A stretch of 64,000 bases of DNA from a virus (lineage: Duplodnaviria; Caudoviricetes), in the IMG/VR virus record IMGVR_UViG_3300027804_000038, positions 160,001-224,000 of that record. The stretch is one strand, 5' to 3'. The position numbers were made by a program, and so were the translations under genes. Below are positions 46,793-58,094 of the stretch, one piece after another (positions within the stretch are counted from its first letter, which is position 1; each line of letters begins with the position of its first letter). The notes beneath the pieces are model-generated. The model worked only from the letters and a program-made list of their open reading frames with translations, made no database searches and was not told where the DNA came from.

Positions 46793-46804
46793 TATTTATA
46801 AATA
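46793..46804. promoter_or_regulatory. Palindromic double TATTTATA element between divergent genes
   Basis: TATTTATAAATA is a perfect palindrome carrying the motif on both strands; ATGs at 46768 (-) and 46807 (+). Confidence 0.55.
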
Positions 46805-51200: not shown

Positions 51201-52817
51201 ATGATTAATTTGTTAAAAATTAAAAATGAAAGAGTATTCATTACTGAATATCATGATTATTGTGACGTAAAACCTGAGGATAATTCACTGTTTGGATACA
51301 ATATGGTAACTGGTGTAAAAAATGAATGGAAATTCAAAGGAAATTATACTTGTACCGAAGAAAAAATAAAAGACTATGGTAATTTATTATGTTCAGTGAA
51401 TATAATCAGACATACATTATGTTTAGATGAGAATGATGATATCGTCTCTATAAGAGCTTATTTTTTCACTAAAAATAGAAGGGTCGGAAGTAGGTTTTTT
51501 AAAACTAATACAAATATGAAGTTTTTAACCTACAATAAAAAAACAAAAAATTTTTATAATGGTAGTATGTTTAACTATCATTTAAAAAGAAAAAGGACAT
51601 CATCTATTAAATGTAATTTCTTTTTTGATAATTTTTTTAATCATGTCTACTATAGTTTTGCTAGAGTAAACCAAAATACGCCCCAACCAATATTAGAGTT
51701 TGATAAGTCCAAAGTTGATGAGATATTTCAAACTTTCCTGAGTAAAGTCGGTATTGAAAATGAGTTTAATAATAAAACATTTATTAATGATTTATTTGGT
51801 AAATTATTAGATGATAAAGGAATTAAAAAACCAAATAATTTCTATGCATTTAAATACTGTATACCTAGACCGACTAAAAAAATATATAAGAACAACAAAA
51901 ATAAAATGGTTGAATCTTATATGGATATGTACGGGATTCATGGGGATAAAATGAAAAAAATTCTACATAATCTAAAAGAAATTAATTTAAAATTAATTAA
52001 ACAAATAATTGATATTTTTGGGCATACTTATTTATCACAGAAATCAGAGATTGATTTAATTTTATTTTATGAAAATATTATTAAGAATAATATATTTTTA
52101 GATAAAAATTTTATAGACCTCCTTTCAAAGAAAGAAAAAGAAAACTTTTTTAAATGTGTTTTAATAATTGACAATAACGTAGGTATTAATCAATGGTCAT
52201 TTAATGACCACATGGTTTTTTATAAAAAAATACTAAAATACGAAAAAATAAAATGGAAATCTTTTGACCTAAATTCATTTAAGTCGGAACATATTGAGTA
52301 TAGCGAAAAGAGTGAGTTTTATTCTAAAGGATATTATGTGAGAAATTATGATAATAAATTCAAAGATTATATCCAAGAAGAAATTGTTATAAATAACCAA
52401 ACATATTGGCCAATTCTTCTTGAAGAGTATGAACAATATACAGAGGAAAGTTCACATCAATCAAACTGTGTTAAAACTTATAATTCAAGAGTTGATTCTG
52501 TAATAGTTTCTCTAAGAAACGAAAGTAATGATAGGTTAACAATACAAATGATACCTAAAAAAAATAATAACGGTAAAATTTTTTGGAAAAACGCTCAAAC
52601 TAGAGCAAAATTCAATGAAATGTATACGGAAGATTGGATATTACCAATCACAATATTAGAAGAAAGATTTTCGACATCAAAATTTGAATTACCTGAATTT
52701 TTTTATGTTAATTATTTAGGTAAAAATAAAGTAAATGTTACATTTAATGAAGTAATAGAAGAAACCTATGACAGTGGTCACATTAAACCAAATCAGTTTG
52801 ATTTATTAAATTTTTAA
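51201..52817 (+). CDS. PcfJ-like domain protein
   Basis: C-terminal EESSHQSNCVKTY...IVSLR...TIQM...QTRAKFN resembles the PcfJ E...(M/Q).(H/N)CV..Y...Q.RG..N pattern. Confidence 0.6.
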   Translation: MINLLKIKNERVFITEYHDYCDVKPEDNSLFGYNMVTGVKNEWKFKGNYTCTEEKIKDYGNLLCSVNIIRHTLCLDENDDIVSIRAYFFTKNRRVGSRFFKTNTNMKFLTYNKKTKNFYNGSMFNYHLKRKRTSSIKCNFFFDNFFNHVYYSFARVNQNTPQPILEFDKSKVDEIFQTFLSKVGIENEFNNKTFINDLFGKLLDDKGIKKPNNFYAFKYCIPRPTKKIYKNNKNKMVESYMDMYGIHGDKMKKILHNLKEINLKLIKQIIDIFGHTYLSQKSEIDLILFYENIIKNNIFLDKNFIDLLSKKEKENFFKCVLIIDNNVGINQWSFNDHMVFYKKILKYEKIKWKSFDLNSFKSEHIEYSEKSEFYSKGYYVRNYDNKFKDYIQEEIVINNQTYWPILLEEYEQYTEESSHQSNCVKTYNSRVDSVIVSLRNESNDRLTIQMIPKKNNNGKIFWKNAQTRAKFNEMYTEDWILPITILEERFSTSKFELPEFFYVNYLGKNKVNVTFNEVIEETYDSGHIKPNQFDLLNF

Positions 52818-52818
52818 A

Positions 52819-53142
52819 ATGGATATAAAAGAAAAATATTTTACTAAAGAAAAAGATTTTTTTGATAAATTTGGATTATTATCTGTAATCAATTACGAAG
52901 ACTCACATAAACTAACCCCAAAGGAACTATCAAGTAAAAAAAATACAGAATCTGTTTTAATAATATCTACGTATCAAAACGATAAAGAGTTTATTACTGA
53001 CTATATTTGTTCAGTACAAAAAAAATTTTATATTTATTTGTCATCTACTATTATGGAAAGTAGTTATAAATTAAGAATATATTATTCACCAAATGATATT
53101 GCTGAAATAAAAATGTTAATACAAAATTTAAAAAATGATTGA
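52819..53142 (+). CDS. Hypothetical protein
   Basis: 107 aa ORF in the operon. Confidence 0.55.
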   Translation: MDIKEKYFTKEKDFFDKFGLLSVINYEDSHKLTPKELSSKKNTESVLIISTYQNDKEFITDYICSVQKKFYIYLSSTIMESSYKLRIYYSPNDIAEIKMLIQNLKND

Positions 53143-53437
53143 AGTATCACCTGAAGAATTAAAAGAAAAAATTCAAAATAAAGAGACCATGATGGTTGAT
53201 TTTTACGCAACTTGGTGTATTCCATGTGGCAGACTTATTGAAGAACTTAATGACATTGACACAGAGGTTCCAGTATATAAGATAAACGTTGAGGATGACG
53301 TTGAGTTTTCAAAATCCTTAGGGATTAGGTCTGTACCCACCGTAAAAATATTCAAAGAGGGTCAACCAATATCAACAATGGTTGGATTTAAACCAAAAAG
53401 TGAGATAAAAAATATTTTATCTGAAAGTTTATCATGA
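53135..53437 (+). CDS. Thioredoxin
   Basis: VDFYATWCIPC, KINVED and GIRSVPT...FKEG. Confidence 0.85.
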   Translation: MIEVSPEELKEKIQNKETMMVDFYATWCIPCGRLIEELNDIDTEVPVYKINVEDDVEFSKSLGIRSVPTVKIFKEGQPISTMVGFKPKSEIKNILSESLS

Positions 53438-53703
53438 ATAAGTTAGTGGTATATACAATGAAAGGTTGTCCTCATTGTGATGACTTTAAAAAAATGTTAA
53501 AAAATGAAAAAATAAAATTTACGAATAGAGATGTTGAAAAACATTCTGATGAGTATGAGTTATTTGTTAGTGTAACTAATGATTTTGTTCCAGCATTTAT
53601 GATTATTAATATGGAGGAACCAAATAAATCTGAATTATTTGCACCTGATTTACATTTTAATGATTTAGAAGAAGGTTTGAAAATTATTAAAGAAAAATTA
53701 TAA
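53434..53703 (+). CDS. Glutaredoxin/thioredoxin-like protein
   Basis: VYTMKGCPHC and cis-Pro motif FVPAF. Confidence 0.8.
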   Translation: MNKLVVYTMKGCPHCDDFKKMLKNEKIKFTNRDVEKHSDEYELFVSVTNDFVPAFMIINMEEPNKSELFAPDLHFNDLEEGLKIIKEKL

Positions 53704-54976: not shown

Positions 54977-56380
54977 TTAAAAATAATCTCCTATTGAATA
55001 ATTAATACAATTATCGACCTGACTTGAGTTAGGGTAATCGTCTAATCTTGGTACTCTTAATGATTCACGAGCTCCATCATCTATTAAATCTTTTAGTAAT
55101 CTACCGTAACTACCAAAATACTCAATTGTATCACAATGAATTCCATCACAATCCTTGTTTTCAGTTAACCATTCCGAAACAACTTCATATACACATTTTG
55201 TGGCTTTGTATCTTGTTCCGTAAAATGTTTTAGATACTTGTTTACCTTCTTTATCCCAAACTTGTTTTTTGTATGAATACTCATCTCGTTTGTTGTCATC
55301 AATTACAAAACCAACTAGTTCAGACATTAAACTATCATACCATTCATCAGTTAATGTTCCTTCATAACAACCGTGATAGATATCATATAAATCACTTCGT
55401 ATATCATCTAATTCCTTATTAATTAGGTACTCAATAGTATCATCATCACCAAGTATACGAGAGATGACCTCATCAGTTAATTCAACATCATCACGACCTT
55501 GTTCCTGAGCAATTTCTTCAAGTAATTCAGTATCGGTACCGATTGTTTTCATATCTTTAAGTTCAGATGTAATTCTTTCATTAACCAATTTTTTATTTTC
55601 ATTAGTTAACTCATCATATACGTCTCTATAAACATCATCAGTCACATCCCAAAAACTCACATCATACTCACCATTTAAAATACTCTCAATTGAATCACTA
55701 CTAATTTCATTACGATATGACGTATTGAAAAACCCTGAAAGTTCACCTGAAGATGTGTCAAAATAATAATCACTTCCTATTTTTATAATATCTGAAAGAT
55801 ATTCATCAACTATTCTCCAAACAAAAGAACTATCATTTTCATAAAACGCATAAAATAATCGATTTTGGTAATCTTCATATATTGGATTAAATGGGTCTAT
55901 CCTATTTAATAAACCTTTTTTACTTAAAATTTCGAAATAATTTTCGATACCACCAAAAAACTTATCAAAAAATTCAATACCTTCATCATCCTCTAATTTC
56001 TTTATAATTTTTAAAAATTTTTCATCTTTTTCTGACAAGTTTTCTTCATTTTGTTCTTTTATATTTTTCTTTTTTAAAAATTTGAGTAATGGTTTTTCAT
56101 CTGTAACGTCTGCTCGACTAGATAATTTTGAAAATTCATCACTCTTTTTCTTATAGTCCCAGTGGTCAGGTAAATCTTCAGAATCAATGACTTTATCATA
56201 AACAACATCATCACTTAATGGAACCAAGTCCAATTCTGGATGAGCAATATATATACCTTTATTACCCCAATCCCAAACTCTTGTTGGTTTATTTAATAAC
56301 TTTCTAAAATGTTTATTAGAAAAAAAGTTATCTTGGTTATAACCTCTAATAATTATGTAATCACCTGTCTGTAAAGTCAT
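54977..56380 (-). CDS. Acidic hypothetical protein (467 aa)
   Basis: D/E-rich ORF; TATTTAT 4 nt upstream of the ATG. Confidence 0.65.
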   Translation of the reverse strand: MTLQTGDYIIIRGYNQDNFFSNKHFRKLLNKPTRVWDWGNKGIYIAHPELDLVPLSDDVVYDKVIDSEDLPDHWDYKKKSDEFSKLSSRADVTDEKPLLKFLKKKNIKEQNEENLSEKDEKFLKIIKKLEDDEGIEFFDKFFGGIENYFEILSKKGLLNRIDPFNPIYEDYQNRLFYAFYENDSSFVWRIVDEYLSDIIKIGSDYYFDTSSGELSGFFNTSYRNEISSDSIESILNGEYDVSFWDVTDDVYRDVYDELTNENKKLVNERITSELKDMKTIGTDTELLEEIAQEQGRDDVELTDEVISRILGDDDTIEYLINKELDDIRSDLYDIYHGCYEGTLTDEWYDSLMSELVGFVIDDNKRDEYSYKKQVWDKEGKQVSKTFYGTRYKATKCVYEVVSEWLTENKDCDGIHCDTIEYFGSYGRLLKDLIDDGARESLRVPRLDDYPNSSQVDNCINYSIGDYF

Positions 56381-56392
56381 ATTAATAAATAT

Positions 56393-56419
56393 AAAAAAAG
56401 GGGAAAATAACTTCCCCTT
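56393..56419 (-). terminator. Rho-independent terminator
   Basis: Perfect 8-bp stem AAGGGGAA/TTCCCCTT with a U tract on the minus strand. Confidence 0.8.
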
Positions 56420-56451
56420 GTAATCTAGATTAATTTTTTGGTTTTATTGGA

Positions 56452-56490
56452 TTATTTTCCACATCCGCAACCACCACCACCGTTTTTCAT
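56452..56490 (-). CDS. Candidate 12-aa micropeptide MKNGGGGCGCGK
   Basis: ATG to TAA, with its own TATTTATA motif (plus-strand 56520-27) upstream and a terminator downstream. Confidence 0.45.
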   Translation of the reverse strand: MKNGGGGCGCGK

Positions 56491-56530
56491 AGCGCTATTT
56501 TTTTTAATGGTTTATTACTTATAAATATTT

Positions 56531-56656
56531 TTATTTTTTGTTTTTGTTGTAGTATTTCTCAATAACCTTTTTAACAGAGTCTTGTGAAGATGTATTCTTT
56601 TGAGGTAAAGGTTGTTGATTTGACTGATTTTGCTTATTTTTACATGAACACCCCAT
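56531..56656 (-). CDS. 41-aa protein with an N-terminal CxC motif
   Basis: MGCSCKNKQNQSNQQPLPQKNTSSQDSVKKVIEKYYNKNKK-stop; TATTTATA (plus-strand 56684-91) upstream. Confidence 0.6.
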   Translation of the reverse strand: MGCSCKNKQNQSNQQPLPQKNTSSQDSVKKVIEKYYNKNKK

Positions 56657-56753
56657 AATATTAGAATATTAATTTTTATTATATATAAATATTTCACTAA
56701 GATATTAAAAGGAAATAGTAAGTGGATTTATATATTTATAAATAAAAACAATA

Positions 56754-58094
56754 ATGAATTATCATTTAAAGAAAATTTTAAAATCTATTATAAGTGAACA
56801 GGATGAAAATGAATACATTTTTATCCAACCACAAGAACTTATTGATATGTTAAAATTCGTATCCTATGACGTTAATGCTTTAAGTAAGTTAAAAAAATAC
56901 AGAAACAAAAATATAGTAGTTCAAGGAAACTTGAATCTAAGCGGATTACCAATTAAGTCATTGAGTCCAATTAAAAAAATAGAGGGAAGACTTGATATTT
57001 CAAATACAAAAGTATCTAGTATAGATGGTATTGAAGTTACAGGGTATGTGACAGATTATGGGACACCAATTGAGTCTAAACGAAAGGCTAAAATTAGAGC
57101 GGAGAAAATTTCAGGAGCTAACGCAAGAAGAGAAGACAATGAATGGGATTTAGAAGTTTACAATGACGAAGAAAGTTTATATGCAAATGTTTTGTTTGAT
57201 TATCTAGAATCGGATATTGATGAAATTGTTAGACCTAAAAATTATTCTGAATTATTGAGTAATTTACAGACTAAAAGAAGTAATTTAGAATATGACCAAG
57301 AACAATTAGAAGATGTTAATAGTAGTGAATACAACGAGATACAAGAAAAAATTGATGAAATAGACACTGAAATTGAAGAATTGGAAGATAGTGTAGATGT
57401 GTATTTTTTAATACCCAGTAAATACACGCATTACGGGTTAACAGTATTTGAAGTATTAATACCATCAAAAGAAGGAGAAGAATATACTGTTGGTACTGAA
57501 AGAGATATGGACAATGCTATTAGGGATTATCAAGAAGAATATTTTAATGAACATGGTGTTAATGGTTACCGAAGAGACTTTTGGTTAAATTATATCGATT
57601 TAGATAGGATTTATGATGATGCATTAGAAGTTTATGAGAGTGATGTTAGAGACAATCCTGATTCATATTTGAGTGATAGTGATAAAGAATTGAGTCAAGA
57701 ACAATTAGATGAGATTAAAAAATTGGAAGAGGAAAAAGATGAACTTGAATCACAACTTCATGACTTGGAACCTGGGGATGATGAGTATGATAATATTGGA
57801 GATAGAATTAATGAAATAGATATTGAAATAGGTGAAATTGAAGATTCTCCAGATGGCGAATATAATGATAGTGCGATAGAAGAGAAGGCCGAAGAACTTG
57901 CAAGTTATTACAGAGATAATCCCGAAGAATTTGCTGGAAACATGGGATATGATTTGTCAGAATACATTGACAAAGAAGAATTAATAGAGGCTTCAATTTC
58001 TGAGGATGGGTATGGTAACATGAATCATTATGATAATGATTATGATAGTTTTGAATTTAATGGTGAAACTTATTATATAATGAGAATAACATGA
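56754..58094 (+). CDS. Highly acidic protein with a short LRR-like N-terminal repeat and coiled coils
   Basis: VQGNLNLSGLPIKSL..IKKIEGRLDISNTKVSSI; D/E-rich helical hairpins; TATTTATAAATA at 56733-44; leader MNYHLKKILKSIISE. Confidence 0.6.
   Translation: MNYHLKKILKSIISEQDENEYIFIQPQELIDMLKFVSYDVNALSKLKKYRNKNIVVQGNLNLSGLPIKSLSPIKKIEGRLDISNTKVSSIDGIEVTGYVTDYGTPIESKRKAKIRAEKISGANARREDNEWDLEVYNDEESLYANVLFDYLESDIDEIVRPKNYSELLSNLQTKRSNLEYDQEQLEDVNSSEYNEIQEKIDEIDTEIEELEDSVDVYFLIPSKYTHYGLTVFEVLIPSKEGEEYTVGTERDMDNAIRDYQEEYFNEHGVNGYRRDFWLNYIDLDRIYDDALEVYESDVRDNPDSYLSDSDKELSQEQLDEIKKLEEEKDELESQLHDLEPGDDEYDNIGDRINEIDIEIGEIEDSPDGEYNDSAIEEKAEELASYYRDNPEEFAGNMGYDLSEYIDKEELIEASISEDGYGNMNHYDNDYDSFEFNGETYYIMRIT

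Follow-up and report, generated by a model that had tools for sequence, protein, structure and literature searches.

Conserved phage micro-genes encoding two short polypeptides with a shared cysteine tip

Two very short reading frames located between divergent genes of an uncultured freshwater jumbo phage are real, conserved genes, encoding a 41-residue protein (ORF1) and a 12-residue peptide (ORF2) that each carry an exposed Cys-Gly/Ser-Cys-(Gly)-Lys tip. The same tip also ends unrelated proteins of giant viruses of eukaryotes, and its role, probably in metal or disulfide chemistry, has not been measured. The DNA analyzed, referred to here as the window, is a stretch of 64,000 nucleotides corresponding to bases 160001-224000 of the 293,850-bp IMG/VR record IMGVR_UViG_3300027804_000038, a genome of about 30% G+C. 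This genome encodes tail-spike-like virion proteins, a terminase large subunit and a portal, together with SprB-repeat and DUF5122 proteins that point to a Bacteroidota host. As gene callers skip frames this short, both families are invisible in annotations.

Organization of the intergenic region

The original prediction described two Cys-containing micro-ORFs on the minus strand, each preceded by its own motif and closed together by a terminator, and this observation is confirmed by the sequence, except that the terminator stem has 9 pairs rather than the 8 proposed. The elements occupy a 373-nt gap between two divergent genes and are collected in Table 1.

Table 1. Features of the gap between the divergent genes and of its flanks, in window coordinates
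Position	Strand	Feature	Remarks
56754-58094	+	Divergent gene, 446 aa	
56733-56740	+	Box, 13 nt before the 446-aa gene	Overlaps the minus-strand copy at 56737-56744
56737-56744	-	Box copy	Overlaps the plus-strand box
56684-56691	-	Upstream box 1 (TATTTATA), 27 nt before the ORF1 start	Candidate promoter of ORF1
56674-56680	-	AATAAAA element	Follows box 1
56531-56656	-	ORF1, 41 aa, starting MGCSCKNKQ and ending KYYNKNKK	Met-Gly-Cys-Ser-Cys-Lys tip, disordered Gln/Asn/Ser/Pro spacer, predicted C-terminal amphipathic helix ending in EKYY plus Lys-rich residues
56520-56527	-	Upstream box 2 (TATTTATA), followed by TAATAAACC at 56509-56517, 29 nt before the ORF2 start	Candidate promoter of ORF2
56452-56490	-	ORF2, 12 aa (MKNGGGGCGCGK)	Met-Lys-Asn, four Gly, then Cys-Gly-Cys-Gly-Lys
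56421-56432	-	Perfect 12-nt palindrome (TAATCTAGATTA)	Just upstream of the terminator; no role assigned
56393-56419	-	Intrinsic terminator ending the ORF1/ORF2 unit	Hairpin at 56398-56419 with a 9-bp stem (4 G-C pairs) and a 4-nt loop; T-run to 56393
56384-56391	-	Box variant (TATTTATT), one mismatch, 3 nt before the 467-aa gene	
54977-56380	-	Downstream gene, 467 aa	Acidic; two invariant Cys (C338, C458); function unknown

Judged alone, these pieces are not beyond chance. The box occurs 21 times in the window against 20.0 expected, and terminator-like sites number 2 against 1.3 expected in 5.5 kb. It is position and conservation that lift them above chance: of 100 box copies in the genome, 68 lie in the 10.8% that is intergenic, and 51 lie within 40 nt upstream of a called gene start in the sense orientation, most of them at 3-20 nt. 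Box, ORFs and hairpin also recur in the same order in dozens of diverged relatives.

The original prediction called the motif late, and this is plausible, as the same box precedes the terminase, portal, a protease-like protein, a peptidase/endolysin-like protein, a tail-spike-like protein and an SprB-repeat protein. A promoter for late or structural genes with very short leaders is therefore plausible but inferred from position only, with no transcription start, timing or sigma factor determined. Like the T4-type late promoter (TATAAATA, recognized with gp55 near -10 of late genes), the motif is an 8-nt A/T-only box close to the starts of structural genes and without a -35 partner. However, on the coding strand it reads TATTTATA, the reverse complement of the T4 box and not the T4 box itself, and it lies only 3-30 nt from the ATG. 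ORF1 and ORF2 share a longer version, in which the box is followed after 3-4 nt by (A/T)AATAAAC, about 27-30 nt before the ATG.

The terminator had been attributed to the 12-codon ORF, but it is not specific to that frame, as it ends the ORF1 unit in all clades, including those that lack ORF2. Across 52 distinct ORF1 loci the box is present in all 52, most often 29 nt from the ATG and with a conserved AAATAAAC(C) about 3-4 nt after it, while a hairpin plus T-run is present in 49, with stem sequences that differ between clades but stay complementary. A box-like motif follows the terminator in 47 of 49 relatives.

Two families of short genes with a common tip

Conservation of frame and of the CxC motif in related phages had been set out in advance as the test of these frames, and both pass it, with coding-type substitution patterns and members found far beyond this genome; there is no expression, translation or proteomic evidence for either frame. 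A relative with 48% identity in the neighboring gene has a 51-codon homologue of ORF1 at the same place, with the same box and a terminator. A profile search found 12 clusters in a 90%-identity collection, an exhaustive search of 1.84 billion proteins found 173 representatives at E<=1e-3, and a DNA pattern found 88 IMG/VR loci with 40 distinct proteins, many on contigs of 270-322 kb. ORF1 is a near-universal gene of a widespread group of freshwater jumbo phages. The C-terminal block, which the search pattern did not constrain, has codon-position entropies of 0.66, 0.35 and 1.36, the signature of coding sequence.

The tip is strictly kept across 155 members. The residues between Met and the first Cys are Gly (127), Ser (17), Ala (5) or Ala-Gly/Ser-Gly/Gly-Gly (6), the residue between the two Cys is Gly (151) or Ser (4), and Lys follows the second Cys in 155 of 155. 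Exactly two Cys occur in 154 members and KYY in 148. The ORF1 of the window, with Cys-Ser-Cys, thus carries the minority variant. Between the tip and the C-terminal helix ending in EKYY, the Gln/Thr/Pro spacer varies freely in length and sequence, and the AlphaFold2 model of ORF1 has residues 1-20 without regular structure and a helix at 21-40.

Synteny is fixed in relatives of 45-60% identity, where a divergent gene of about 430-446 aa is followed by ORF1, a gene of about 440-470 aa and a gene of about 205-240 aa, and beyond these, on the opposite strand, by a 175-aa gene, glutaredoxin and thioredoxin. The 467-aa neighbor follows ORF1 (and ORF2 where present) in the relatives examined. It has 182 homologues, all hypothetical, no Pfam or PHROG family and no PDB sequence match, and its confident AlphaFold2 model (pLDDT 84.7) gave no Foldseek match to the PDB at E<=0.001.

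No Pfam, PHROG, PDB or literature match exists for either peptide. For ORF1, Pfam and PHROGs gave only sub-threshold noise, and searches of PDB sequences and the ESM Atlas gave nothing useful. Among cultured-phage records, neither blastn with the 3.3-kb region nor tblastn with a family member gave a match, and a scan of 185,579 prokaryote species found a single 2.7-kb MAG contig, so this is not a host gene family. All Rfam matches to positions 56300-56800 were far below gathering scores, and literature searches with the peptide strings gave no hit, only DNA strings matching.

ORF2 is also real, although patchy in its distribution. It belongs to a family of 11-23-residue peptides, Met-Lys followed by Asn/Gly filler and then Gly-Gly-Gly-Cys-Gly-Cys-Gly-Lys. 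Close relatives keep it unchanged, while a more distant clade has a 16-17-codon version with an Asn/Gly insertion. In an alignment of seven diverged cassettes the box, TAATAAAC, the ATG and the next eight bases (ATGAAAAACGG) are invariant, whereas the 5' leader between the first two of these elements and the ATG varies; every substitution inside the ORF is third-position and synonymous, indels are whole codons, and conservation stops at the stop codon. A pattern for the last seven codons plus the stop hit 106 IMG/VR loci, while the same residues in permuted order (KGCGCGG plus stop) hit none. This pattern allowed only synonymous variants, and so cannot reveal degraded copies. Eighty-seven hits are micro-ORFs of 11-27 codons ending in GGCGCGK, almost all starting Met-Lys, such as MKNNNGGGCGCGK and MKKGGGCGCGK. 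Seventy-four of these have an ORF1-family gene 15-100 nt upstream, in three layouts: a 24-nt gap without a box (fused transcript), about 40 nt with a box, and about 95 nt with a terminator and a box, the peptide gene in this last case standing between two terminators. ORF2 is dispensable, as four of five complete ORF1-bearing jumbo genomes have no ORF2-like frame, and in the fifth it lies about 45 kb from ORF1.

The remaining 19 hits are longer, unrelated proteins of 48-192 aa that end in the same heptapeptide, including basic peptides, a two-helix membrane protein and a Cys/Ala/Pro-repeat protein. Several lie in genuine giant-virus contexts, namely a 196-kb bin with NCLDV capsid genes, and contigs with an NMT-like gene, PolX-ligase or NAD-ligase genes and FG-repeat proteins. 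Conversely, other phages have 80-103-aa proteins that start with MGCNCKNKQ, two of them with a further CxxxC pair near the C-terminus. In the genome studied here G-C-G-C is coded only once, in ORF2, and CxC is otherwise at the expected frequency.

Inferred role of the terminal dithiol

The interpretation given in the original prediction is partly supported: these are micro-genes, each with its own upstream motif, that share a CxC motif, but none of the roles proposed for them (metal-binding peptides, thiol-crosslinking cement or precursors of modified peptides) was assayed. We favor a reading, to which we assign a probability of roughly 55%, in which both are genuine protein-coding genes of a phage probably infecting Bacteroidota, and in which they share one functional unit, G-C-G-C-(G)-K, placed at a chain end and portable to unrelated viral proteins. 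After removal of the initiator Met, ORF1 members would expose Gly/Ser/Ala-Cys-Gly(Ser)-Cys-Lys at the N-terminus, and the exposed CXC dithiol, its thiol pKa lowered by the neighboring amine or Lys, would either bridge a metal ion or Fe-S cluster between chains or carry out thiol-disulfide exchange or cross-linking. The ORF1 helix would dock the tip onto a partner, most likely a late or virion protein. Of this picture, the analysis itself demonstrates gene status, family membership, architecture and linkage, whereas the promoter role of the box, late timing, Met removal, docking by the helix and all of the chemistry are inference.

That a Cys-Gly-Cys unit occurs at a free chain end next to Lys, in hosts from two domains of life, argues for chemistry that needs no host-specific machinery, but the two chemical options cannot be told apart on present evidence. 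Two Cys per chain cannot hold a metal or cluster alone, so oligomers or partners would be needed and none was shown; a complex prediction of an ORF1 dimer with Zn scored 0.05, which counts neither for nor against binding. The bacterial cytoplasm is reducing, so that a CXC disulfide of high potential would be reduced there and a redox role would have to act in the virion or after lysis. Thioredoxin and glutaredoxin genes lie 2.8 kb away in conserved synteny, although this is circumstantial. No Erv1/ALR sulfhydryl oxidase was found in the genome, but the control genomes were silent too, making this search uninformative.

There is precedent for such chemistry. H-Cys-Gly-Cys-NH2 has E0' = -0.167 V and a low thiol pKa, mimicking protein disulfide isomerase, and designed CXC-linker-HDEL peptides, with an N-terminal CXC, a linker and a C-terminal anchor, work in vivo (bioRxiv 10.64898/2026.01.27.701630). 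ORF1 has this same plan, with a small residue between the Cys, a cationic Lys after them and only one or two small residues between Met and the first Cys; the preprint links a nearby positive charge, the N-terminal ammonium, to the low thiol pKa. The designed peptides are synthetic and act in the oxidizing endoplasmic reticulum, whereas ORF1 and ORF2 are natural and made in a reducing cytoplasm; disulfide exchange activity and redox potential were not measured here, and the target of the handle is unknown.

GciS (mimivirus R633b), from the glycine/cysteine-rich Fe-S protein family of Megavirinae (Villalta et al. 2023, as described in PMC12499515), is, like ORF1 and ORF2, a very small viral polypeptide with no folded domain, and it is built around Gly and Cys. 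It is described as the most abundant virion protein, binds [2Fe-2S] and linear [3Fe-4S] clusters and has no known role, and shows that viruses encode tiny thiol-rich peptides at high level. No homology was shown, the R633b sequence not having been compared with either family, and neither Fe-S binding nor presence in virions was assayed for ORF1 or ORF2. Members of the GciS family are about 6 kDa and exceptionally rich in Gly and Cys. ORF2 is 8/12 Gly plus Cys but only 12 aa long with 2 Cys, and ORF1 has 2 Cys and 1 Gly in 41 aa and is mostly a Gln-rich spacer plus a helix, so that composition does not settle membership either way. With one CXC unit at a chain end, any cluster would need several chains, and the hosts here are bacteria. 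Inter-chain zinc sites built from half-motifs, such as the zinc clasp of CD4 CxC with Lck CxxC and the Rad50 zinc hook, offer another comparison, as a two-Cys motif at a flexible end could pair with a second from another chain to hold one metal ion, although no metal binding or pairing was shown.

A broader and more tentative reading, unlikely on present evidence but not excluded, is that viruses of both bacteria and eukaryotes use a portable, genetically encoded terminal dithiol tag, carried as a free 11-23-residue peptide, on a spacer-plus-helix handle, or on the ends of structural or membrane proteins, and acting as a minimal redox catalyst or inter-chain metal/Fe-S ligand during virion assembly or stabilization. 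That would make ORF2 one of the shortest independently transcribed functional genes known, and ORF1 a natural counterpart of designed CXC peptide catalysts. If the shared tip is a working dithiol, it would show that phages encode minimal thiol cofactors or cross-linkers, would link them to the unexplained Gly/Cys-rich virion proteins of giant viruses, and would give a natural test case for the idea that a CXC peptide can do an enzyme's job. The conserved order of box, micro-gene, terminator and box is also a clean system for defining the promoters of these uncultured phages.

Alternative readings

Among the alternatives, all of them weaker, the least unlikely is that ORF1 and ORF2 are precursors of ribosomally made, post-translationally modified peptides, with Gly-Cys units turned into thiazoles or thioethers and the ORF1 helix acting as a follower recognition element for a maturase. 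Two small neighboring genes share one short Gly/Cys core and are flanked by conserved proteins of unknown function, Gly-Cys cores are typical substrates in microcin B17-type products, and N-terminal cores with C-terminal followers exist, as in bottromycin. However, no YcaO, radical-SAM, lanthipeptide or other maturase family was found by Pfam or PHROG among the neighbors, a wider survey of the genome not being carried out, and the modeled downstream protein has no enzyme-like structural match. In addition, an 11-residue peptide leaves no room for a leader, and the tag sits on membrane and basic proteins of giant viruses, unlike a natural-product precursor.

It is similarly doubtful that ORF2 is a regulatory leader peptide, on whose Gly and Cys codons slowing ribosomes would control read-through of the terminator into the 467-aa gene, as in amino-acid operon attenuators or the polycysteine leaderless short ORFs that act as cysteine-responsive attenuators in mycobacteria (bioRxiv 10.1101/834739). 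The layout is the classical one, with a promoter-like box, a short ORF rich in two amino acids (6 Gly and 2 Cys in 12 codons), a terminator 30-45 nt after the stop (32 nt in the window) and then a gene, and some clades have a C-rich stretch right after the stop codon that could pair with the G-rich terminator arm. Against this, the terminator is present in all clades that lack ORF2, and a box, itself only inferred to be a promoter, lies between terminator and gene in 47 of 49 loci. Folding of the window finds no helix competing with the terminator (z = -1.3), the terminator stem changes between clades without matching changes in ORF2, and the spacer after the stop is not conserved. The heptapeptide also ends proteins of 48-192 aa, which cannot be leader peptides, and in one clade ORF2 lies about 45 kb from both ORF1 and the downstream gene.

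Slightly less likely again, the conserved GG-rich string could be an untranslated nucleic-acid element in the 3' part of the ORF1 transcript, such as a two-tetrad G-quadruplex or a protein-binding site. Runs of GGN are striking at about 30% G+C, a GG tract in codon positions 1-2 would also tolerate only third-position changes, and ORF2 is too short for any direct coding statistic; such an element cannot be excluded. It does not, however, explain the retention of the ATG-AAA start, the stop codon and the TG of both Cys codons, the whole-codon indels, or the variation of position 3 as Asn/Lys/Gly/Thr while the frame holds. The heptapeptide plus stop closes long ORFs in viruses of 40-46% G+C, and the cassette has its own box and in some clades terminators on both sides.

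Lipid attachment or membrane targeting by S-acylation of the Cys pairs, next to an N-terminal Gly or near a C-terminus, is the weakest reading, for although Met-Gly-Cys-x-Cys resembles eukaryotic dual-acylation signals and one giant-virus contig with a tagged membrane protein also encodes an N-myristoyltransferase-like protein, the host here is a bacterium, the genome has terminase, portal and tail-type genes, no bacterial system for such acylation is known to us, neither peptide has a hydrophobic segment or a lipobox, and position 2 is Ser, Ala or two residues in 28 of 155 members, which does not fit N-myristoylation.

The 12-nt palindrome upstream of the terminator is partly kept in three relatives. 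A 28-aa frame antisense to ORF2 (56438-56524, plus strand) is considered an artefact, as it starts in the non-conserved spacer and all expression signals face the other way.

Genes and sequence elements around the micro-genes

The thioredoxin (100 aa, active site WCIPC) and glutaredoxin (89 aa, CPHC) genes lie about 2.8 kb from the micro-genes, and the pair keeps the same position relative to ORF1 in distant relatives (L013-L019). Upstream of this pair is a 538-aa protein with a PcfJ-like domain (PF14284, 27.3 bits). The 467-aa neighbour folds confidently in the predicted model (pLDDT 84.7) yet matches nothing in the PDB by Foldseek, and in several clades the first 100 or so residues, a small beta domain, are missing.

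The palindrome (TAATCTAGATTA) lies between ORF2 and the terminator and is partly kept in the relatives L129, L160 and L203, although no role is known for it. At two divergent intergenic regions, two boxes overlap on opposite strands (TATTTATAAATA), giving a palindromic double box that may be a bidirectional promoter.

Positions of the accompanying features (L-numbers denote loci or contigs of other viruses)
Location	Feature
window 46793-46804	Palindromic double box
window 51201-52817	538-aa protein
window 53135-53703	Overlapping thioredoxin and glutaredoxin genes
window 54977-56380	467-aa neighbour
window 56421-56432	Perfect 12-nt palindrome
window 56733-56744	Palindromic double box
L032:7974-8237	Protein with ORF1-type tip
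L040:6748-7056	Protein with ORF1-type tip
L067:1758-1997	Protein with ORF1-type tip
L125:4049-7282	Contig with NAD-dependent DNA ligase within a few kb of tagged small protein
L127:9924-10979 (minus strand)	Contig with tagged membrane protein and N-myristoyltransferase-like protein
L130:6956-8830	Contig with NAD-dependent DNA ligase within a few kb of tagged small protein
L158:191-2041	Contig with NAD-dependent DNA ligase within a few kb of tagged small protein

Similar cysteine motifs in other viruses

Other, smaller AT-rich phages have 80-103-aa proteins that begin with the ORF1-type tip (Met-Gly-Cys-Asn-Cys-Lys-Asn-Lys-Gln) but continue with unrelated domains, two of them with a CxxxC pair near the C-terminus, and these lie inside operons without the box. 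In related jumbo phages, a large protein (L222, L223 and L225, the 835-aa ORFs in relatives G004, G006 and G007) has a dense Cys cluster that includes Ser-Cys-Gly-Cys-Gly-Cys and several CxxC pairs, which is probably a metal-binding domain and a possible partner site for the tips.

The ORF2-type tag also ends a two-helix membrane protein on a prasinovirus-like giant-virus contig (L127), which encodes the N-myristoyltransferase-like protein as well (PF01233, 48.6 bits). Three AT-rich giant-virus contigs (L125, L130 and L158) each have the ligase within a few kb of a 60-63-aa small protein that ends in this tag. This may be a conserved neighbourhood, and in one contig the ligase is fused to a PolX polymerase.
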